Below are positions 52,617 through 64,000 of a stretch of DNA of 64,000 nt, in pieces. Made by a program: the position numbers and the translations under genes. The DNA is from Bryobacterales bacterium (GTDB lineage Bacteria; Acidobacteriota; Terriglobia; Bryobacterales; UBA6623), in assembly GCA_963422375.2 (NCBI GenBank), contig OY729428.2, forward strand, positions 1,792,001 through 1,856,000. The letters run 5' to 3'. Each line of letters opens with the position of its first letter. The stretch's first letter is position 1. Under the pieces are notes generated by a model that saw nothing but the letters and a program-made list of their open reading frames with translations, had not been told where the DNA came from and did not search any database.

Positions 52617-55600
52617 ATGCGGAACCGTCTGGCCCTGTCACTGCTGCTCGCTGCAGGCGTTTCGTTCCCTCAGACCAAGCTGCTCAGGTTCCCCGATATC
52701 CAAGGCGACAGAGTCGCTTTCGCGTACGCCGGCGACCTTTGGACCGTGCCGGCGCTGGGCGGCCGCGCGGTTCGCCTGACGGCTCATTCAGGACTGGAAC
52801 TGTTCCCGAAGTTCTCGCCGGACGGAGCGTGGATCGCGTTCACCGGTCAGTACGACGGGGACGAGCAAGTCTACGTCATCCCGTCCGTTGGCGGCGAGCC
52901 CCGGCAGCTGACGTTCTATCCCGCAAGAGGGCCGCTCGCGCCACGCTGGGGCTACGACCACCAAGTGTACGGCTGGACGCCCGACGGCACCGCCGTCCTG
53001 TTCCGCTCGTCCCGCGCCTACTGGGGAGCGAAGGACGGCAGGCTCTACACCGTGCCGCTCGAAGGCGGTCTCCCGACGCCTCTCGAGATGCCTGTTGCGG
53101 GTGCCGGAGCGATTTCCCCGGACGGCAGCTTCGTGGCATACTCGCCCCTGTTCCGGGACTTCCGTACTTGGAAGCGGTACCAAGGCGGGTGGGCGCAGGA
53201 TCTCTACCTGTTCGATCGCGGCAACTCTACCACGCAGCGCATCACCGACCACGTCAGGACGGACCGCGACCCGATGTGGGTCGGCGGGGAGGTGCATTTC
53301 GCCTCGGACCGGGACGGAATCCTCAATCTCTACCGTTACGACCAAGAGTCGAATCAGCCCAGGCAGCTGACCCACGAGAAGACCTGGGACGTGCGGTGGC
53401 CTTCGACAGACTCCGACCATCGCATCGTGTACGAGCTGAACGGGGAGCTCAGCATACTCGACACCAGGACTGGCCGGTCGCGGGCGCTCCGTATCGAAGT
53501 GCCCAGCGACGGCGGGTCGCGGCGCCCGCGGAGAGTCTCGGCGGCGTCGAGCGTCGAGAGCTACGGCCTCAGCCCAAAGGGCCGTCGAGCGGTATTCAGC
53601 GCACGAGGCGACGTATTCACGGTGCCCGCGGAGAAGGGCCCGACCCGGAACCTGACGCGATCGTCGGACTCGCATGACCGCCTCCCGAGCTGGTCCCCCG
53701 ACGGCCGGTGGATTGCATTCGTCTCGGACAAGTCCGGCGAGGAGCAGCTGTACCGAGTCGAGCAGCGAGGAGGCAAGCCCGAGCAGCTCACCGAAGGGGT
53801 GCGCGGTCGTCTCTACAGGCTCGAGTGGTCGCCGGATTCGAAGAGGATTGCGTTCTCGGACAAGGAAGGCAAGGTCTACGTTCTCGATGTCGAGAGCAGG
53901 GACGTCACCGAGATCGCAGACGAGCCTCGCGGGAGAATTACCGACTACAGGTGGTCACCGCAAGGCGGATATCTGGCGTTCACCGTCAGCGTGTCCGCCG
54001 TGAGGAACTCGATCTTTATCTGGGACGCGTCCGACGGGCAGCTGCACCAAGTGGGCGGCGATTTCTTCGACGAGCACACGCCGGCTTGGGGCAGGAACGG
54101 GGACTATCTCTACTATCTCAGCGACCGCGAGTTTTCGCCGCTGATCTCTTCGACGGAATGGAACTTCGCGACAGACAGGCAGACCGGGGTCTTCGCGCTC
54201 GCGCTGCGACGGGACGTTTCCCATCCCTTCCCGCCCGAGAGCGACGAGGCCGAAGTGAAGGCAGGGGAGCCGTCCGACGGCGACGACGATGCCGACGAGG
54301 ACGGCCACGGCGACAGCGAAGACTCGGATGGGGAAGACGGCGAGCACGCGGACAAGCAGGAGTCCTCCATGGAGCCTGTTCGGATCGACTTCGACGGCTT
54401 GGCCGGCCGCGTGGCACCGGTTCCCGTCCCGGCAGACAACTATCCCATCTCGGGATTGCGGGCCCTTGACGGCTCGCTGCTCCTCGTGCGCGACGAGCCG
54501 TTCTACTACGGGCGCGACTCGGGCGGCGAAGCCGAGATCAAGATCTTCGACCTGAAGGAGCGCGAATTCAAGACCGTGACGCAGGGGCGGCGCTTCGCCT
54601 TGTCTCGCGACGGCAAGAAGCTCTTGGTGCGGCAGAAGGGCTCGTACAAGCTGTACGATGCCAAGGCCGCTGCCAAGGATCCCAAGACGGTCTCGACGGC
54701 CGGGCTGCAGGTCGACCTTGTTCCAGCGCAGGAATGGAAAACGATCTTCGAGGAAGTTTGGAGGCGCTACCGCGACTTCTTCTACGTCCGAAACATGCAC
54801 GGCTATGACTGGGAGGCGATCCGGGAGCGGTACCGCCCGTGGCTCGAGCATGTCCGGCACCGCTCCGACCTCAACTACGTCATCGGAGAAATGATCGCTG
54901 AACTCAACGTCGGCCACGCCTACATCTCGGGCGGCGACTACACCGCTCCTCCCAGGCCCAACGTCGCTCTGATGGGCGCCGATCTCGAACTCGACGCCGC
55001 CAGCGGCCGCTACCGCATCGCGAGGATCCTGGATGGCCAGAACGAGGAAAGCGAGTACCGGTCCCCCCTGACGGAAATCGGCGTGGATGCGCGAGCCGGG
55101 GACTATGTGCTGGCGATCGACGGGGAGGACTTGGCAGCCGGAGACAACCCATACAGGATGTTGCGGCACAAGTCGTCGCGGCCCGTCGAGCTGCTCCTGA
55201 ACGGCAGCCCGGAGCCCGACGGAGCGCGCACCGTCGAGTACAGCCCGGTCACCGACGAGTCGAATCTCCGCTATCTCGGGTGGGTCGAGGGAAATCGGCG
55301 GGCTGTTAGCGAGGCGACAGACGGCAGGGTGGGGTACCTCCATGTCCCCGACATGAGTTCTCGTGGCATCAGCGAGTTCATCAAGTGGTACTACCCGCAG
55401 CTGCGCAAGGAGGGCCTGGTGGTGGATGTCCGCGGGAACGGCGGCGGAAACGTGTCGCAAATGCTGATCGAGCGGCTAAGCCGCCAGCTGCTCGGCACGC
55501 GCTACTCGCGGACCAACGGGGATTTCCGCACCTACCCGAACGAAGTCTTCCTCGGGCATCTAGTCTGCTTGGTGAGCGAGAACTCCGCTTCCGACGGGGA

Positions 55601-55931
55601 CATCTTCGCCGCTCGCTTCAAGCGGGCCGGTCTCGGTCCGCTGATCGGCAAGCGGTCGTGGGGAGGCGTGATTGGCATCACGTCGCACGGACCGCTGATG
55701 GACGGAGGAGACGTGCGAGTGCCCGAATTCGCGACGAACGATGTGGACGGGGCGTGGATCATCGAGGGCTACGGTGTCGAGCCCGATATCGTGATCGAGA
55801 ACGACGCTGCGGCGGTACTGGCCGGACGCGACCCACAACTCGAGCGGGCTGTCGCGGAGGTCCTGCGCATGATTCGCGAGGATCCCAAGCCGCGGCCGTC
55901 GCGTCCGGCGGATCCGGTTCGGACGCAGTAG
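52617..55931 (+). CDS. Tricorn protease homolog (S41 peptidase with PD40 propellers and PDZ)
   Basis: LLRFPDI, repeats FSPDG/WSPDG, ELNVGHAY, GYLHVPDM, DVRGNGGG, SASDGD and EGYGVEPD. Confidence 0.93.
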   Translation: MRNRLALSLLLAAGVSFPQTKLLRFPDIQGDRVAFAYAGDLWTVPALGGRAVRLTAHSGLELFPKFSPDGAWIAFTGQYDGDEQVYVIPSVGGEPRQLTFYPARGPLAPRWGYDHQVYGWTPDGTAVLFRSSRAYWGAKDGRLYTVPLEGGLPTPLEMPVAGAGAISPDGSFVAYSPLFRDFRTWKRYQGGWAQDLYLFDRGNSTTQRITDHVRTDRDPMWVGGEVHFASDRDGILNLYRYDQESNQPRQLTHEKTWDVRWPSTDSDHRIVYELNGELSILDTRTGRSRALRIEVPSDGGSRRPRRVSAASSVESYGLSPKGRRAVFSARGDVFTVPAEKGPTRNLTRSSDSHDRLPSWSPDGRWIAFVSDKSGEEQLYRVEQRGGKPEQLTEGVRGRLYRLEWSPDSKRIAFSDKEGKVYVLDVESRDVTEIADEPRGRITDYRWSPQGGYLAFTVSVSAVRNSIFIWDASDGQLHQVGGDFFDEHTPAWGRNGDYLYYLSDREFSPLISSTEWNFATDRQTGVFALALRRDVSHPFPPESDEAEVKAGEPSDGDDDADEDGHGDSEDSDGEDGEHADKQESSMEPVRIDFDGLAGRVAPVPVPADNYPISGLRALDGSLLLVRDEPFYYGRDSGGEAEIKIFDLKEREFKTVTQGRRFALSRDGKKLLVRQKGSYKLYDAKAAAKDPKTVSTAGLQVDLVPAQEWKTIFEEVWRRYRDFFYVRNMHGYDWEAIRERYRPWLEHVRHRSDLNYVIGEMIAELNVGHAYISGGDYTAPPRPNVALMGADLELDAASGRYRIARILDGQNEESEYRSPLTEIGVDARAGDYVLAIDGEDLAAGDNPYRMLRHKSSRPVELLLNGSPEPDGARTVEYSPVTDESNLRYLGWVEGNRRAVSEATDGRVGYLHVPDMSSRGISEFIKWYYPQLRKEGLVVDVRGNGGGNVSQMLIERLSRQLLGTRYSRTNGDFRTYPNEVFLGHLVCLVSENSASDGDIFAARFKRAGLGPLIGKRSWGGVIGITSHGPLMDGGDVRVPEFATNDVDGAWIIEGYGVEPDIVIENDAAAVLAGRDPQLERAVAEVLRMIREDPKPRPSRPADPVRTQ

Positions 55932-56524: not shown

Positions 56525-57037
56525 CTAGTACACAGGCGTTCCGTAGGGGACGGGTGTTTCGACACGCCGGATATCGCCAACCCGGGCAATCTTCCAGTCG
56601 CCCGCCTGCCTTCGGAGATAGACCTCTTGGACTTCGTTCCGGTCGGCGTAGACGTACTCGACGCGGACCTCCGCTTCGTGGCCCGTTTGCTTCGGAGCGT
56701 TCATGGCGATGCCCTTGATGTCGCGATTGCGCTGCTTCAGGAACTCTGAGAAGCGCTCCGCGCCCATCTCCTCCAGGCTCTGTCGCAGCGTCCGCTCCAT
56801 CTGGCCCATGTAGCAGGCGAGATAGTCGTCGACGACGCCGTCTCGAGCCGCGTCGAGCATGGCGTAGATTACGTCCCGGGGCTCTGCCTTCCGGGATGAT
56901 CCCAAGCCCAAGAACCCGCCATCGTTGTCGGAGCCGCGCCGCAGGGCATCGAATCCGCCCTGGTTCCAAGCGATCAGCGCGAGTGCCGCCGCGATGAGCC
57001 CGATCGTGACGGACTGGGCCTTGGCGTCCTTGCTCAT
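56525..57037 (-). CDS. Membrane-anchored hypothetical protein, last gene of the ATPase-SPFH operon
   Basis: ATGA overlap with the hflK-like stop; one N-terminal TM segment; C-terminal ..AGDWKI.. pattern suggestive of an NTF2-like fold. Confidence 0.7.
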   Translation of the reverse strand: MSKDAKAQSVTIGLIAAALALIAWNQGGFDALRRGSDNDGGFLGLGSSRKAEPRDVIYAMLDAARDGVVDDYLACYMGQMERTLRQSLEEMGAERFSEFLKQRNRDIKGIAMNAPKQTGHEAEVRVEYVYADRNEVQEVYLRRQAGDWKIARVGDIRRVETPVPYGTPVY

Positions 57038-58026
57038 GGAACGGCTGACCGGCCTGAGGCTCCCCGGCGGATCAGCGTGAGGTCGAGGTTGCCGCTCTCG
57101 TCCACGATCGTCTTGCGCAGGCGCGGCAGGACTTCCTCCATTGTCTCGAGGAAAAGGCGGCTTCGGGTGACCTCCGGGTTCCGCCGGTACTCGGAGGCGA
57201 GCCGCTCGAATCGCGCCGACTCGCCCTGCGCCTGCTGGATCTTGCTGACGCGATAGCCCTGCGAGGAAGAGAGCATCTGCTGGGCCTCGCCCCGGGCGCG
57301 CGGCAGGATGTCATTCGCGTAGCCTTCCGCCTCGTTGACAATGCGGGCGGAGTCTGCCCGAGCCGACGCTACGTCGCGAAACGCGTCCGCTGCTTCCGCG
57401 GGCGGCGTGACGGAGCGGATATTCACGGTTGACAGCGCGACCCCAAGGCCAAGGCGATCGACAAGCTCCTGAGCCCTGCGCCGGACCTCTTCCTGAATCG
57501 CGATCTTCTCGGTCGTCAGGACGTCATCGACCGAGCGCGTGGCGACTTGCCGTCCTAGAGCCGCCTCGACTGCATTCGCTACGGCTCGCTCCACGTCTCT
57601 GGAGCGGAACAGGTACTGCGCGGGATTGGCCACGCTGTACTGAGCGACAGCCCGCACGTTCAGGATGTTCTGGTCGCCCGTGAGGAACTGCGAGAGGACG
57701 GGATCCGCTGGAATGGCGTTTGCCTCGTCCGCGACCTCGCCTCCGATGAATGCTCGCTTGAGCTCGCGCACCTTGAGCTTGTAGACCCGCCCCACCGGCC
57801 ACGGGAAGTGCCATCCCACGCCAGGCGTGACCTCGTTGTCCGCCAGAGCTCCGAAAGTCGTGAGCACCGCCTGCTCCTCGGTCGGGACGACGTAGATGCC
57901 GGTCGCCAGCCAGATTGCGGCAAGGCCGGCTGCGACTTGGCGGCGCTTGCCGTCGCGAGCCCGGTTGGCCGCGGGCGCGCGGGCCGGCCTCTCCGAGGCT
58001 TGCTCCGGATGCGCGACATCGTGCAT
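57034..58026 (-). CDS. hflK: HflK-like SPFH protein
   Basis: TM segment then GIYVVPTEEQAVLTTFG, PGVGWHFPWP, FLTGDQN, AFRDVASAR, NEAEGYANDILPRARG and RLFLETMEEVL. Confidence 0.88.
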   Translation of the reverse strand: MHDVAHPEQASERPARAPAANRARDGKRRQVAAGLAAIWLATGIYVVPTEEQAVLTTFGALADNEVTPGVGWHFPWPVGRVYKLKVRELKRAFIGGEVADEANAIPADPVLSQFLTGDQNILNVRAVAQYSVANPAQYLFRSRDVERAVANAVEAALGRQVATRSVDDVLTTEKIAIQEEVRRRAQELVDRLGLGVALSTVNIRSVTPPAEAADAFRDVASARADSARIVNEAEGYANDILPRARGEAQQMLSSSQGYRVSKIQQAQGESARFERLASEYRRNPEVTRSRLFLETMEEVLPRLRKTIVDESGNLDLTLIRRGASGRSAVP

Positions 58027-58034
58027 GTTCTTGG

Positions 58035-59039
58035 TTACTGCCCCCGCGTCATGAGTCGCAGGAGTTCCGAATCCGCGCTGAGGATAACGGTCGTGTCCTC
58101 GTCCAAGGCCTTGCGGTAGGCCTCCAGCGTGCGCGTCAGTTTGTAGAAGGACTGATTCTTGGAATAGGCCGCTCCGTAGATCCGGGCCGCTTCGGCGTCT
58201 CCCTCGCCCTTTGTCGTCTCGGCCTCCTTGTACGCCTTGGCGAGAATCTCCTCGCGCCTGCGGTCCGCCTCAGCGCGAATGCGTAGCGCTTGCTCCTCTC
58301 CCTCGGCGCGGTACTGGCGCGCGATGCGCTCTCGCTCCGCCCGCATCCGGGCGTAGACGCTCTGCTTGTTCTGTTCCGGCAGGTTGAGCCGCTTCAGCCG
58401 CACGTCCACTACGCGAATGCCGTAGTCCTCCAAGGCTTCCGTGCCGCTCTCCTCGGCGAGCTTGTCGAGCACCTTCTCGGTCTTCGCGATCTCGGGGGAG
58501 ATCGACACGATCTCCTCTAGGTCCAGCCGTGCGATTGTCGCCGCCAAGCGCGACCAGACCAGGTCGTGAAGCCTCATCTCCGCCGCCCGCTCGTTGACCA
58601 CTGTCTTCACGAACGTCTCGGGGTCGGCGATCTGCCATAGCGCGTAGCTGTCGATGCTCAGGTTCTTCTTGTCCTTGGTCAGGAATTCCGAGCGGGGCGG
58701 GTTGTAGACCCGCAGCCGACGGTCGTAGAACCGGACTTGCTGGAGCCACGGGACCTTGACTCTCAGCCCCGCCTCGGTGACGGTGCGAATCGGCTTGCCG
58801 AACCGCGTCACGAAAGCGAACTCGCTCTCGCGCACGGTGAACAGTGTTGACCATGCCAGCAAGAGGCCGAGGAGCCCTAGGAGCCAGGTTCGGTGACGGT
58901 GCAGCGCTGCCCGCCAGTCGAAAGGCTGGCCGGGCGGGGGGGCGTGGCCGTGAGGACGGTGTCCCTCGTGGGCTTCGGAGGGATGGTCGCGTCCATGCGA
59001 ATGTGCGCGGCGACCGTGAGTGTGTTTGTGGTCGTGCAT
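58035..59039 (-). CDS. hflC: HflC-like SPFH protein with His-rich N-terminus
   Basis: VTRFGKP, FLTKDKKNLSIDSY, GIRVVDVRLKRLNLP, YARMRAERERIA and FYKLTRTLEAY. Confidence 0.9.
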   Translation of the reverse strand: MHDHKHTHGRRAHSHGRDHPSEAHEGHRPHGHAPPPGQPFDWRAALHRHRTWLLGLLGLLLAWSTLFTVRESEFAFVTRFGKPIRTVTEAGLRVKVPWLQQVRFYDRRLRVYNPPRSEFLTKDKKNLSIDSYALWQIADPETFVKTVVNERAAEMRLHDLVWSRLAATIARLDLEEIVSISPEIAKTEKVLDKLAEESGTEALEDYGIRVVDVRLKRLNLPEQNKQSVYARMRAERERIARQYRAEGEEQALRIRAEADRRREEILAKAYKEAETTKGEGDAEAARIYGAAYSKNQSFYKLTRTLEAYRKALDEDTTVILSADSELLRLMTRGQ

Positions 59040-59042
59040 GGC

Positions 59043-62000
59043 TTACTCGCCGACCTCGGGTATCTCGAACGGGGGCGGGGGCTGCTGCATCTGGCTCCCT
59101 TGCGGGGCCACCAGGACGCCGTCGTCGACCGTCCAGAGCGTGCGGCGCCCGCCCTGCGAGTCGATCACAAGCTTCTTCCGACCCGGCAGGATCTCCTCCA
59201 TGGTTTCTAGGTAGAGCCGCGTGGAGGTCGATTGCGGGGCGGCGCGGTACGCCGTCTCCAACTGGTTGAACCGCGCCGCGTCGCCGCCCGCCCGGTCGGA
59301 CCGGCTCGCCTTGTAGCCGCGAGCCGTCTGCACCAATGCCGCGCCCTGCCCCCGGGCCAGAGCGACCCGCTCGTTCGAGTAGGCCTCCGCTTCGTTGATC
59401 ATTCGATTCTTCTCCTCGAGCGCGCCGGCGACTTCCCGGAACGCGTCGACGACCTCGACCGATGGATGCATGTCCTGAATGTTGACGTGCAGGACGTTGA
59501 CTCCGCTGTGGTAGTCGGCTAGGAGCTGGTTCAGCTCGTCGGCCGCGCGCCGTTCCGCCCCGCGTCGCCCCGCGGTCAGCAGGGTGTCGAGGGAGACGGA
59601 ATTGACTACCGACCGCAGCGCCGCTTCGGAGGCAGCCCGGATTACCGTCTCCGGATCGACTTGCTGGAACAGGTAGTCATCCGGGCGCTCTATGTCGTAA
59701 TGCACCACCGCGGTCATCTCGATCATGTTCTGGTCGCCCGTCAGCATCAGGGTCTCCTCGTCCCTGAGCTGGATGCGTCCGTCCCGGTGCTGCAGGTTCC
59801 ATTCGTACGATGGAGGCTCGGTGAAGGTGCTGGTCGGCGACGTGCGGAATCCGATCTCGATAACGCGCACCTGTTTCGCTCTGACCTTCGTCACGCGGTC
59901 GACCGGCCACGGAGCCTTGAGGTGCAGGCCCGGCTCGCGATGCGGAAGCACCTTGCGTCCGAATCGCTCGATCACGCCCACTTCCTCGGTGCGCACAGTG
60001 AACGCGGAAGTTGACGCCCACGCCACGAGCAAAGCTGCCCCGGCGGGCTTGGCGAGCCTCCGGCGATTCTCGACGAGCCAGGCAAAGCCGCCGGCTGGAT
60101 CGATGCGGCTCAGGAAACCGACGACGGATTCCCACACGCGCCCGATACCCACAGCGCCCCAGAAGCGCTTCCAGCGGGTCACTTGCCCGGCGGGCCGCTC
60201 GATCCGCAGCAAGCGCACCGAGTTGAGCATCACGAAGATCGACGAGATCTGATGCACCCCCGCGGCGAGGGCGGGGCCCATCCAGCCCTTGCCCGCCACG
60301 TAGACGGCGACCACGTTCACGACGCCTGCGAACAGGATGATGTTCTGCCAGACGGTTGTCACCGCCTGGCGGGACACGCCAAAAAGCCTAGGCAGCTTGC
60401 CGATCTGCGTGTTCAGGTCGACCACATCGGCGGCCTCGGCCGCGATGTCCGCTCCGGACCCAGAAATCGCGACGCCCACGTCGGCTGCGGCCAGGGCTGG
60501 CGCGTCGTTCACCCCGTCCCCGATCATGGCGACCTTGCGGCCCTGGACCTGCAGTTGCTTGATGCGGTCGAGCTTCTGCTCGGGCAGCAGCTCGGCCTCG
60601 ACGTGGGTGATGCCGACGACCCGAGCCATCGCGTCCGCTGCCTTGCGCCGGTCCCCGGTCAGCAGGATGACGTTCGGGATGCCGAGATCCTCGATTTCGT
60701 GGATCGCACCGTGCGCGCCCGCCTTGGGGGTGTCGCGAAGGAGGATGGCTCCGGCAAACTGTTGGCCGTGCGCGACGAGCACCGGCGTTGCGCCCGCCCG
60801 GTCCGCCGCATCCAAGTAGTCCTTCAGGTTCTCGATGCCGTTCTCGGCAAGGAACGCCTCGTTGCCCGCGCGAATGACGCGACCTTCGTGGATGCATTGG
60901 GCGCCGCGCCCGGGGACGATCTTGGCGTCCTGCGACACCCCGGGGGGGATACCGCGCTCGTCGGCGCTGCGGACGATCACCTTGGCCAGCGGATGATCGG
61001 AGCCCGCTTCCGCCGTGGCGCCGAGAGACAGGACCCGCTCCGCGCTGTGGCCCTCTGCGGCCAGGACCTCGACAATCTCGAACTCGCCAGTAGTCAGCGT
61101 CCCGGTCTTGTCGAACACCACCGTGTCGATTTCGGCGGCCTTTTGCACCACCTGGCCGCCGCGAGCCAGAAGGCCCCGGCGGGCAAGGCCGCCGATGGCC
61201 GCGACCATGGCGGCCGGTGTGGCTAGGATCAGGGCGCACGGGCACGCCACGATCAGCACCGCGACGGCCCGGCGGACGCGCTCGGACGTCTCCACGTCGC
61301 TCGCTAGGAAGTAGACGGCCCCGGCAGTCAGCAGGATCGCGGGCAGGAAGTAGCGCGCGTAGCGATCGGCTACACGAACCACGGGGGCGGTGCGGTGGTC
61401 GCGAGCCTCCTCAACTAGATGGATGAGCCGCGCCAATGTCGAGTCGTCGCCTGCGTGCGTGACGCGGACGTGCAAGAGACCATGGCCATTGACGGTGCCG
61501 GAAAAGACCTCGTCACCGGCGGTCTTGTCGCGCGGGACCGATTCGCCCGTGATCGGGCTCTCGTCGATAGACGACTCGCCTCGCTCGACCACGCCGTCAG
61601 CGGCGATCCGCTCCCCGGCGCGCACGGCGATGAGGTCCCCCGGAACCAGATCCTCGACGTGTACCTCGACTTCCGTGCCGTCCCGCAGGACGCGCGCATG
61701 GTGCGGGAGCTGCTCGACGAACCGGTGGATCGCACGTTCCGTGCGCCCGGCTGCCCAAGCTTCTAGGCCCTCGCCTAGCAGCATGATGAACATCGCTTCG
61801 GCCGCGGCTAGGTACTCGCCGATGGCGAGAGCCGCTCCGGCGGCGATGACGATGGCGAGATCGGCCGAGATCCTCCGCTCGAGCAGCTCGGAAATGGCGC
61901 GGTAAAAGGTCTTGTAGCCTGCTAGAACGGCTAGGAAGATCGCCGTGTCGAAGCCGGCGACGGAATCGAAAATCCCTAATACGTTGAGGAGCAGGAGGGC

Positions 62001-62084
62001 GCCGACGACGGCAGTGAACCCTACGTACTTGATCTGCTCCCGCCGGTCGCGATTGATCGCGTGGTCTTCGGAGACAACATGCAC
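59043..62084 (-). CDS. P1B-type heavy-metal-translocating ATPase fused to a C-terminal HflK-like SPFH domain; start uncertain (GTG 62084 proposed)
   Basis: TGES, IVACPCAL, DKTGT, HP, TGD and GDGVND, continuing in frame into a TM segment, EVGVIERFG, PGLHLKAPWP, MLTGDQN, NEAEAYSN and RLYLETMEEIL. Confidence 0.9.
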   Translation of the reverse strand: MHVVSEDHAINRDRREQIKYVGFTAVVGALLLLNVLGIFDSVAGFDTAIFLAVLAGYKTFYRAISELLERRISADLAIVIAAGAALAIGEYLAAAEAMFIMLLGEGLEAWAAGRTERAIHRFVEQLPHHARVLRDGTEVEVHVEDLVPGDLIAVRAGERIAADGVVERGESSIDESPITGESVPRDKTAGDEVFSGTVNGHGLLHVRVTHAGDDSTLARLIHLVEEARDHRTAPVVRVADRYARYFLPAILLTAGAVYFLASDVETSERVRRAVAVLIVACPCALILATPAAMVAAIGGLARRGLLARGGQVVQKAAEIDTVVFDKTGTLTTGEFEIVEVLAAEGHSAERVLSLGATAEAGSDHPLAKVIVRSADERGIPPGVSQDAKIVPGRGAQCIHEGRVIRAGNEAFLAENGIENLKDYLDAADRAGATPVLVAHGQQFAGAILLRDTPKAGAHGAIHEIEDLGIPNVILLTGDRRKAADAMARVVGITHVEAELLPEQKLDRIKQLQVQGRKVAMIGDGVNDAPALAAADVGVAISGSGADIAAEAADVVDLNTQIGKLPRLFGVSRQAVTTVWQNIILFAGVVNVVAVYVAGKGWMGPALAAGVHQISSIFVMLNSVRLLRIERPAGQVTRWKRFWGAVGIGRVWESVVGFLSRIDPAGGFAWLVENRRRLAKPAGAALLVAWASTSAFTVRTEEVGVIERFGRKVLPHREPGLHLKAPWPVDRVTKVRAKQVRVIEIGFRTSPTSTFTEPPSYEWNLQHRDGRIQLRDEETLMLTGDQNMIEMTAVVHYDIERPDDYLFQQVDPETVIRAASEAALRSVVNSVSLDTLLTAGRRGAERRAADELNQLLADYHSGVNVLHVNIQDMHPSVEVVDAFREVAGALEEKNRMINEAEAYSNERVALARGQGAALVQTARGYKASRSDRAGGDAARFNQLETAYRAAPQSTSTRLYLETMEEILPGRKKLVIDSQGGRRTLWTVDDGVLVAPQGSQMQQPPPPFEIPEVGE

Positions 62085-62119
62085 AAGTAGACAAAGATAC
62101 CAAACGCCCGCCGGGCGTT

Positions 62120-62343
62120 CAGTCGACGAATCGCCACGGGAAGTGGCCGCAGTCGGCGTTTCGCCACGCCAGTCGACGAATCGCCACGGGAAGTGGCCGC
62201 AGTCGGCGTTTCGCCACGCCAGTCGACGAATCGCCACGGGAAGTGGCCGCAGTCGGCGTTTCGCCACGCCAGTCGACGAATCGCCACGGGAAGTGGCCGC
62301 AGTCGGCGTTTCGCCACGCCAGTCGACGAATCGCCACGGGAAG
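62120..62343. repeat. Perfect 50-bp tandem repeat, about 4.5 copies
   Basis: Unit CAGTCGACGAATCGCCACGGGAAGTGGCCGCAGTCGGCGTTTCGCCACGC starts at 62120, 62170, 62220 and 62270, with a partial copy at 62320-62343. Confidence 0.97.
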
Positions 62344-62561
62344 GGGCGGCGTCGAATTCGGCTAAGCTGGAATTTCGTTGGCGGCGCATCAGATTCGGTA
62401 TGGTCGCGATTCGACTCGGATCCAATGTCGGCCAGGACCGGCAGGCAAGCCATTCATTGCATTCACACTGCTAGGGCCCGGCCCCGCTCTGCCGCAGGTC
62501 GCCGAATCTCCAGTACCGTTCACGATGACGAGGCCATCCGCGCCCATCGTGAAAGTCTCGC

Positions 62562-64000
62562 ATGCACGGCAGGCATGAACGTCCCATAGGGCAAGCTTGG
62601 CTCAGGAGTCGGCTCGGCCTCTCTGTCCCGCTTCCTCAGACGGAATGCTATCTGGTTGCCGGCTCTCGACGAACCGAGACTGCCGGGGCGCGCACCAAGG
62701 AGTTCTATCCGCGACGGTATGGCTCGGACGATTCGGTCGTATCGCACATCAAGTTCGCATTTCGCCACGAGCCGCTGGATCTTGGTGTCTTAGCGGCTGC
62801 ATTCAAGGCATTGGATGCGGCCGAGCTTGAGGCTTGGGTGAGGGAAGAACCGTTTGGCAAGTTCAGCAGGCGCGCATGGTTTCTCTACGAGACGTTTTCC
62901 GGGATGACTCTCGATCTAGAGAACGCGCACGTCGGTGACTATGCCGATGCCTTGGACCGACGGAAACAGTTTGTCGGACCCGCCCGAAGATCCCCTCGGC
63001 ACCGGGTTGTGGACAATCTCTTGGGAGTTGCCGGTATGTGCCCCACGGTCAGGCGCACGGAGCGGCTGTCACATGCGATGAACTCGCGGGTTGACAGAGC
63101 CGCCCGGGCACTCGTCGAAGGCGTCTCTCCCGCGGTTCTCGCCAGAGCTGTCAACTTTCTGTATACCGAGGAGACTCTCTCATCTTTCGCGCTCGAGGGT
63201 GAGACTCCAAGCGCATCGCGCAGCCAGCGATTCGTCGCGGCACTCAGGGCCGCGCCCGCATTCGACCCCGCGGACAAGGCCGCGCTGACTGACCTGCAGG
63301 GAATGATCGTTGACCCCCGCTACCGGGCCGATGGCTGGCGCGACGTTCAGAACTTCGTGGGGACGACTCGTGCCGGATTCCGCGACCGCGTGGATTTCGT
63401 CTGCCCACGGCCCGCGGACGTAGCTGGCCTCATGGAGGCTTGGATGACCCTGACACGGCGCGTTGTGGACAGCGATGTCGATCCGGTCGTGGCGGCGGCT
63501 GTGGCGGCTTTCGCGTTCGTCCTGATACACCCGTTCGAGGACGGGAACGGCCGCATCCACCGATTCCTCGTCCACCACGTCTTGGCGAAGCGGAAGTTCA
63601 GCCCTCCAGGAGTCATCTTTCCCGTCTCGGCGGCGATTCTGCGCGACAGGCAAGGCTACAGCGCGGTGCTCGAATCGTTCTCTCAGGCGATCCTTCCTTT
63701 CGTCCGCTGGTACATGACACCCGAAAGGGCGGTAGTTGTCGAGAACGATACCGCCGATCTCTACCGCTATTACGACGCTACGGCATTCGCTGAGTTCTTG
63801 TATGACAAGGTTGGAGAGACAGTCAGCAAGGACTTGGAGGAGGAGATTGGTTTCATCGACGTCTTCGACCGGGCGTTCGAGTCGGCTCGCGAGATCGTTG
63901 ACATGCCGGACCGCAAGGCTTCCCTGTTCGTCCGGATTTGCATGCAGAACGGCGGGACGCTCGGTAGGAGCAAGCGGAGCAAGTTTTCCGAACTGGATGA
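62562..64000 (+). CDS. Fic-domain protein (3' partial; absent from the ORF track because it has no stop in the window)
   Basis: Hand translation from ATG 62562 gives RRAWFLYE, RHRVVDNLLG and SSFALEGE, with canonical HPFEDGNGRIHR at 63528 in the same frame. Confidence 0.9.
   Translation, partial: MHGRHERPIGQAWLRSRLGLSVPLPQTECYLVAGSRRTETAGARTKEFYPRRYGSDDSVVSHIKFAFRHEPLDLGVLAAAFKALDAAELEAWVREEPFGKFSRRAWFLYETFSGMTLDLENAHVGDYADALDRRKQFVGPARRSPRHRVVDNLLGVAGMCPTVRRTERLSHAMNSRVDRAARALVEGVSPAVLARAVNFLYTEETLSSFALEGETPSASRSQRFVAALRAAPAFDPADKAALTDLQGMIVDPRYRADGWRDVQNFVGTTRAGFRDRVDFVCPRPADVAGLMEAWMTLTRRVVDSDVDPVVAAAVAAFAFVLIHPFEDGNGRIHRFLVHHVLAKRKFSPPGVIFPVSAAILRDRQGYSAVLESFSQAILPFVRWYMTPERAVVVENDTADLYRYYDATAFAEFLYDKVGETVSKDLEEEIGFIDVFDRAFESAREIVDMPDRKASLFVRICMQNGGTLGRSKRSKFSELD

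Follow-up and report, generated by a model that had tools for sequence, protein, structure and literature searches.

A 64,000-nucleotide stretch of a Bryobacterales genome (Acidobacteriota; assembly GCA_963422375.2, contig OY729428.2, forward-strand positions 1,792,001 to 1,856,000; hereafter the window) carries a four-gene operon whose first gene encodes a P1B-type metal-transporting ATPase joined in frame to HflK, a member of the SPFH proteins. We found that this pump::HflK fusion of 1013 amino acids (aa) and its operon are intact, that the distribution of HflC tracks the pump fusion and not the protease FtsH, and that the operon is one member of a wider class, cargo::HflK-hflC-hflK, with four kinds of cargo. 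We favor, with somewhat better than even confidence, the reading that the operon would encode a dedicated HflK/HflC-type (SPFH) periplasmic cage with a transition-metal pump as its tenant instead of FtsH. The genes of the operon, in window positions, are:

59043..62084, minus strand: P1B-ATPase::HflK fusion, 1013 aa, GTG start (AlphaFold2 (AF2) model with a predicted local distance difference test score (pLDDT) of 82.6 and a predicted template modeling score (pTM) of 0.64).
58035..59039, minus strand: hflC, 334 aa, with an N-terminal tail of 11 histidines (TIGR01932 score 223, cut-off 134).
57034..58026, minus strand: free hflK, 330 aa, without the WxxxH motif of the fused HflK (TIGR01933 score 228.5).
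56525..57037, minus strand: orf170, 170 aa, an N-terminal membrane helix and an NTF2-like domain (AF2 pLDDT 87.4).

An earlier note on this DNA, made from its letters alone, had described an in-frame fusion in a tight operon, and both parts of that description hold. The fusion is one uninterrupted frame that scores above the cut-offs of both TIGR01525 (563 bits, cut-off 346) and the HflK model TIGR01933 (218.5, cut-off 159.4) and contains the Pfam domains E1-E2_ATPase, Hydrolase and Band_7. Its motif residues are TGES 179-182, CPC 281-283, DKTGT 325-329, HP 364-365 and GDGVND 522-527. It is followed by a 3-bp gap, hflC, an 8-bp gap, hflK and an ATGA overlap with orf170; the free HflK is 34% identical to the fused one. 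We also looked for a stop or frameshift between the two domains and found none: run X3 gave a single contig over 56300-62149, and run X5, from a different study, a single contig over 57106-61277 that includes the pump/HflK junction, each with 0 differences from the window. X3 possibly comes from the source study, and a further run, X6, yielded short pieces only. The window has no ftsH, as the note had said; the single copy in the genome lies on a separate contig (C1:566210). Similarly, no separate canonical hflKC locus was found in this genome (G000, 96% complete): among its six Band_7 matches only the three in the operon are HflK/C-like, which makes the fusion operon its sole hflK/hflC locus. 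The genome also encodes a separate CopA-type pump.

The fusion protein divides into the following parts:

60207..62045, minus strand: P1B-ATPase part, aa 14-626, with eight predicted helices (MA, MB, M1-M6) and without an N-terminal metal-binding domain.
61236..61244, minus strand: metal site in M4, C281-P282-C283, with C281 and C283 invariant in a 79-sequence alignment.
61098..61112, minus strand: DKTGT phosphorylation motif, residues 325-329, present in 60 of 61 full-length representatives.
60252..60317, minus strand: candidate metal ligands from N590 in M5 to H611 in M6 (N-X20-H-[QE]).
60066..60206, minus strand: cytoplasmic helical linker, aa 627-673, its helices taken from the AF2 model.
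59046..60065, minus strand: fused HflK, comprising the membrane anchor (674-691), SPFH domain and coiled coil.
59787..59801, minus strand: W762-x-x-x-H766 in the insertion loop of the SPFH domain, from alignments.

The AF2 model, built with 79 sequences, contains the eight pump helices, cytoplasmic helices at 637-672, the anchor helix at 674-691, an SPFH domain and a long coiled coil. Its top Foldseek matches are P1B pumps, and the only sequence match of the HflK part in the PDB is E. coli HflK (E 4e-41). In the standard P1B topology the chain leaves M6 on the cytoplasmic side. The fusion chain would therefore be cytoplasmic after M6, and the anchor helix would take the SPFH domain into the periplasm, as in HflK. 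All three SPFH proteins of the operon have the layout expected of HflK/HflC (SPFH3), namely an N-terminal anchor, an SPFH domain and a coiled coil, and exceed the TIGR01933 or TIGR01932 cut-off.

The pump has the sequence hallmarks of a P1B-type ATPase (DKTGT, TGE, GDGxND, a Cys-Pro in M4 and the TIGR01525 match). Its metal site matches none of the well-known subtypes exactly. The signature of the Cu+ pumps of type P1B-1 (CopA), Tyr-Asn in M5 and Met/Ser in M6 (PMC4285229), is absent: M5 reads VVN and M6 HQISS, and the pump falls outside the YN/MxxSS group in the tree. Also absent are the Lys in M5 and Asp in M6 of P1B-2 (ZntA/CadA; PMC4285229), where N590 and H611 stand instead, and the SPC in M4 of P1B-4 (PMC13460109), in place of which the pump has CPC, although its M6 histidine resembles the HEG motif of SPC pumps. 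The nearest motif is that of P1B-6/CtpC, N-X18-H-N-X-(S/T) across M5-M6 (PMC13460109). The fused pump has N-X20-H-Q-I-S, with Q or E in place of N; because HN-type pumps likewise show X20 in this alignment, X18/X20 may be a difference of counting, and the tree had no reference P1B-6. The models TIGR01511 (416 against 397) and TIGR01512 are passed as well and thus do not discriminate the subtype. Database labels such as 'Cu+-exporting ATPase' are unsupported, since neither the ZntA nor the CopA signature is present in the metal site. A divalent metal (Zn/Mn/Fe/Co-like) is a more probable substrate than Cu(I).

Homologous fusions are already in databases, as the earlier note had thought they might be, filed under single-domain names. 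Searching proteins of 557-1773 aa with the HflK part returned 781 matches, and all 120 of those listed carry Hydrolase plus Band_7 (the other 661 stand outside that listing). Of the top 150 representatives clustered at 50% identity, 61 are full-length fusions, with C[PS]C and DKTGT each in 60/61, TGE in 59/61, the M5 asparagine in 60/61, and HQ (43), HE (16), HL (1) or NQ (1) in M6. M6 lies 69-79 aa from the SPFH domain in 50 of 59 representatives. Ten clusters were looked up and three had taxon names, Planctomycetota, Thermoanaerobaculia and Elusimicrobiota; those of close homologues' sources were Acidobacteria, Bryobacterales and Bryobacteraceae. Among 24 same-genus genomes the fusion is whole in 22, split over two frames in one (G023) and unmatched in one (G021). 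G019 carries two whole copies (C1:294052 and C4:58482). That the fusion might be a sequencing or assembly artefact, or the remnant of a dead pump, could draw on the split frames of G023 and G317 and on a truncated second copy in G007 (C1:957546), and is almost certainly wrong: the contigs from two studies are identical, and the catalytic motifs persist in 59-60 of the 61 full-length clusters at 50% identity. We consider this reading refuted.

The neighborhood of the fusion is similarly constant. We collected 75 metagenome loci, 46 of them with sufficient flank (2.7 kb downstream); hflC and hflK follow the fusion in 46/46 and orf170 in 44/46. No ftsH occurs in any fetched locus, nor was linkage to hflX or hfq seen, and no neighbor beyond the four operon genes is generally conserved; a 960-aa protein with a weak DUF3604 match recurs near 24 of the 75 loci. 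Viral contigs gave no relative of the free HflK, and a plasmid search with the pump alone gave only generic P1B matches (identity at most 39%). A contig scan with generic ATPase patterns returned one fusion (L102, Planctomycetales) among the 80 loci listed, which makes it unusable as a census.

Next to these loci we set the distribution across genomes. In a single draw of 121 genomes from the order, where absence means not found in the genomes searched, HflC occurred in 55, the linker-HflK part of the fusion in the same 55, and FtsH in 120. Across the phylum 75 of 151 genomes had an HflK match; two unpublished genomes (G185 and G088) are counted in this tally and support no other claim. These counts bear on a further explanation, in which HflK and HflC form an ordinary FtsH-regulating cage and the pump is the passenger of a fixed fusion. 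It would fit the fact that the operon is the only hflK/C locus of G000 and that its proteins pass the NCBI HflK and HflC models. We regard it as quite improbable: 66 of the 121 genomes lack an HflC match and 65 of these have FtsH, four genomes keep a separate two-gene pair from whose clade the cassette HflCs are excluded, and only metal transporters were identified as cargo.

The wider class emerged from loci taken through paired hflK matches about 2 kb apart: all 7 non-own loci from the phylum search, 21 further loci (a subset of candidates), 7 from the order draw and 10 picked plasmid regions. P1B-pump cassettes in the order long hflK, hflC, hflK occur at L178, L179, L191, L194, L215 and L216. 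At 17 loci the cargo is an SO_0444/ArsP_1 permease (14 by Pfam, 3 by BLAST only; NF033936 over its cut-off in 4/4 scanned), and at five, one on an Aquibium plasmid, it is a CDF transporter. A further 10 loci, including Burkholderia, Klebsiella and Rhizobium plasmids, encode a membrane domain fused to HflK with a free P1B pump directly downstream, an arrangement whose gene order is the one published for the hmtA locus of Pseudomonas, which Zur binds. Wherever cargo could be identified, it was a metal transporter. Plain two-gene pairs made up 6 of the 10 plasmid regions.

Several features of these cassettes deserve record. The N-terminal membrane domain of the hmtA-type long HflK (L092:3868-5763, L198:4394-6214 and like loci) has about seven hydrophobic segments and belongs to no Pfam family; it may be a pump-docking module or a transporter of unknown type. 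A free ArsP_1-family permease gene stands directly upstream of one membrane-domain cassette (L204:1219-2766), placing two transporter types at one cassette. In SO_0444 cassettes L210-L214 the free HflK is about 440-460 aa long, with a C-terminal extension of more than 100 aa.

The cassette proteins are also phylogenetically distinct from the canonical pairs. In an IQ-TREE phylogeny of 39 HflCs, nine pair proteins, E. coli included, formed a 100/98 clade, and all 30 cassette HflCs fell outside it; because the root is unknown, the cassette HflCs are not thereby one clade. The operon in the window, a three-gene cassette with its HflC outside that clade, does not belong to the two-gene hflK-hflC lineage. 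In a FastTree of 70 HflKs the pair proteins grouped at 0.92 without cassette HflKs and 27 of 30 fused HflKs grouped at 0.865, a topology of modest support that would fit cargo swapping on an old fused-HflK lineage. Four genomes (G124, G181, G129 and G081) hold a two-gene hflK-hflC pair alongside the three-gene cassette, and in five others (G013, G016, G018, G022 and G386), all from the family of the window, a pump cassette coexists with an SO_0444 cassette, the two having separate hflC and hflK genes. Vibrio, Phaeobacter, G124, G181 and G129 share a mobile two-gene HflK/C lineage that makes up a 100/100 clade of its own. One Vibrio plasmid of this lineage reads hflK-hflC-nhaA (L089:5845-9214), which hints at another transporter-linked type of cage.

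The earlier note's proposal of a cage around the pump is partly supported: comparative evidence for it is strong, from synteny, from co-distribution with the pump, from the separate HflC lineage and from three unrelated transporter families at the same position, and the complex itself is putative. In such a cage HflC would alternate with HflK as in E. coli, and the K positions would be shared by the pump-bearing HflK and the free HflK. A length-constrained linker into the HflK anchor helix would fix the pump beside the cage wall, and orf170 would be an accessory periplasmic subunit.

A candidate functional element lies in the SPFH insertion loop. In E. coli HflK, R141, E142 and R185 matter for FtsH binding (PMC13220708), and FtsH is bound inside the cage (PMC12624060). 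Fused HflKs have a longer insertion directly after the R141/E142 position, which carries WxxxH in 113/113 close and 71/76 distant pump fusions, in 4/4 pump-type cassette HflKs, in 4/5 CDF-type and in 10/10 membrane-domain-type fused HflKs, and in 0/30 free and 0/10 pair HflKs; because the motif was spotted in the alignment that also supplied these counts, they are descriptive and no independent test. The loop would occupy the site that in E. coli HflK is turned toward the enclosed FtsH, near the periplasmic mouth of the pump, and WxxxH may act as a metal relay site in the enclosed chamber. The residue 'Arg191', given as an FtsH contact in PMC12048511, is an alanine in the E. coli HflK we fetched, and we used R141, E142 and R185 instead.

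A number of observations weigh against a cage dedicated to the pump. The WxxxH motif is found in 0/11 SO_0444-type fused HflKs and is missing from 5/76 distant pump fusions, and its loop has the lowest confidence of any internal region in the model (pLDDT 53-55). The fused HflK retains R740 and R816 at the positions of R141 and R185, with V741 for E142, and the free HflK has K, R and A at the three positions; because two contact arginines are kept and these are the only HflK/C proteins of the genome, FtsH may be housed in the cage as well. R141 is kept in just 2/10 two-gene HflKs, which makes the contact-residue comparison weak. The fusion is split between two frames in G023 and lies in a frame of 596 aa in G317, and at L188 no hflC or hflK follows it within 4 kb. 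Related genomes are not independent, and the cassette loci were chosen for having two hflK matches. Published gene order is what ties the cassettes to Pseudomonas; in a FastTree of pumps (24 fused, 10 hmtA-like and 108 other rows) the hmtA-like free pumps and the fused pumps form separate clades, one fused protein (P0158) lying apart from the main group of fused pumps, so that Pseudomonas data transfer by analogy only. Fused pumps as sisters of hmtA-like pumps were not recovered. In P. aeruginosa, deletion of three SPFH genes had only mild effects, about 20% less biofilm and some larval attenuation (PMC13086221), and hmtA mRNA is not repressed by zinc (PMC8531726).

Some of these same observations suit a different function for the cage, that of a private quality-control device or scaffold that keeps the transporter stable and clustered, or delivers it to FtsH for metal-dependent turnover, and handles no metal. 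The retained equivalents of R141 and R185 are consistent with it, as is the SO_0444 type, which works without WxxxH. There are precedents: PacL is needed for the stability and clustering of CtpC/CtpG in mycobacteria (PMC13460109), and FtsH can degrade membrane proteins with the help of HflK/C (PMC12048511). We consider a scaffold role rather unlikely: it leaves unexplained a Trp-His motif that recurs across three cargo types and at least three phyla and never in free or pair HflKs, and no ftsH is linked to any fetched locus.

If the cage does enclose the pump, the metal could move in either direction, and we rate uptake from the chamber and export into it about equally. The earlier note had assumed export. 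We found no support for preferring export to uptake: the pump has neither the ZntA nor the CopA signature, and the nearest studied locus is bound by Zur and responds to zinc shortage by induction. At that locus in P. aeruginosa, Zur binds and shifts the PA2439 promoter (PMC8531726), PA2439-PA2435 are induced 5.6-14-fold in a znuA mutant (PMC4542158), and zinc depletion induces the SPFH/hmtA genes (PMC11761036). HmtA itself is reported, second-hand, as a Zn/Cu importer, with confirmation called for (PMC10393844, PMC8456098). Also on the side of uptake, one CDF cassette lies behind genes for a DtxR-family repressor and a TonB receptor, and a ZIP gene precedes each of two SO_0444 cassettes. Export, on the other hand, is the main annotation of the three named cargo families; CtpC exports zinc (PMC13460109), the Aquibium locus stands alongside a ZntA-like pump, PCuAC and SCO, and the lack of zinc repression of hmtA mRNA (PMC8531726) also points this way.

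A bolder form of the favored reading, which we put forward as a tentative possibility, is that this distinct, ancient HflK/C branch forms modular periplasmic metal chambers: unrelated transporters would be plugged into one HflK position, the Trp-His loop would capture metal at the outer mouth, and a P1B pump of a normally exporting family would work in uptake. If true, chamber-driven uptake would explain the reported importer HmtA. Another role for the pump is conceivable: FtsH, or other Zn enzymes caged together with it, could draw their zinc from the pump, so that one station would combine protease and metal supply. In favor of this, FtsH is a zinc protease, a link is hinted at for PA2437-39 (PMC11761036), and the P. 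aeruginosa operon is Zur-bound (PMC8531726). This idea is very improbable: the zinc site of FtsH is cytoplasmic (PMC13220708) and therefore needs no periplasmic chamber, and the distribution does not follow FtsH.

The remaining parts of the operon were also considered. The model of orf170 has an NTF2-like fold (an alpha+beta cone): its best structural match is VIA (Z 11.6, root-mean-square deviation 2.8 over 100 residues), many NTF2-like entries follow at Z 9-11, NF051431 matches weakly (E 1.4e-4, below cut-off), and its atlas neighbors are Acidobacteriota clusters without names. The histidine tail of HflC, considered as the metal-binding domain that the pump lacks, is present in 11/45 homologues only and is thus not general. 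Upstream of the fusion, the consensus scan found no sigma-70 promoter. By eye, from same-genus upstream sequences, we noted one element:

62094..62102, minus strand: putative extended -10 element TGnTATCTT, 9 nt before the GTG.

Its position suggests a leaderless, perhaps constitutive, transcript. No conserved operator was seen by eye upstream of the fusions (no motif search was made). Directly upstream of the promoter, 62120-62354 holds 4.7 near-perfect copies of a 50-bp GC-rich unit that occurs at no other site in the genome and was not seen in the 170-base upstream regions of 11 same-genus loci; run contigs break at this array. Divergent from the operon on the plus strand, 62562-63998 encodes a Fic/DOC-family protein (PF02661) truncated by the end of the window, and convergent with it, 52617-55931 (plus strand) encodes a Tricorn-like S41 protease, a neighbor without conservation.

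Together, these results suggest that the pump::HflK protein is real and represents a novel form of HflK/C cage, for which a new role can be put to the test. The gene fusions name the tenant of the putative cage, with three unrelated metal-transporter families at the same cassette position, and so bear on the question of what SPFH cages do besides regulating FtsH. The complex would offer a defined particle for cryo-electron microscopy, with W762 and H766 as targets for point mutants, and we predict that the three orphan P. aeruginosa SPFH genes have a phenotype under zinc or copper limitation. The findings may also bear on the unsettled claim of metal import by the P1B pump HmtA. In the literature searched, as far as the sources were available, we found no description of the fusion or the cassette class, although supplementary domain tables and subscription P1B papers may mention fusions. 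The available text of an SPFH survey (PMC2636767) contains no occurrence of ATPase, metal or transporter. The earlier note missed the wider cassette class and a partly studied, unfused analogue.

The operon can be compared with four known systems. Like E. coli FtsH-HflK/HflC (SPFH3), in which 24 alternating HflK/HflC subunits surround 1-4 FtsH hexamers (PMC12048511), its proteins pass TIGR01933/TIGR01932 and share the anchor-SPFH-coiled-coil layout. Unlike that cage, it has two different HflKs, one pump-fused, in a three-gene cassette, with a WxxxH insertion loop, an HflC outside the two-gene clade and no linkage to ftsH, hflX or hfq seen. The closest analogue is P. aeruginosa PA2439-PA2434 (PaFlo5-7 plus HmtA), where three SPFH genes likewise lie by a P1B ATPase in the order long HflK-hflC-hflK; there the pump is free and behind, whereas here it is fused in front. 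Plasmid loci L092-L094, which have the same order as the P. aeruginosa locus, contain CPC, the M6 His and WxxxH, and by analogy with them the P. aeruginosa long HflK would carry the unnamed membrane domain. We found no proposal of a cage around the pump at PA2439-PA2434 in the literature examined, so far as it was available, and the words 'copper' and 'ATPase' are absent from the available main text of the paFlo5-7 study (PMC13086221).

In mycobacterial effluxosomes (CtpC/G/V plus PacL), P1B pumps likewise depend on a membrane scaffold encoded alongside them and gather in microdomains, and the CPC, N590 and H611 of the fused pump recall CtpC with its CPC and M5-M6 N...H motif (PMC13460109). 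PacL differs from HflK/C in being a small single-helix DUF1490 protein with a cytoplasmic domain, non-SPFH, with neither fusion nor periplasmic cage. Finally, in stomatin-type microdomains an SPFH cup encloses a patch of membrane and associates with solute carriers (PMC13724742), as the HflK/C cage may do here. The stomatin type is eukaryotic, lies on the cytosolic side and has many non-covalent clients, whereas the operon described here would place one covalent client in a periplasmic cage.

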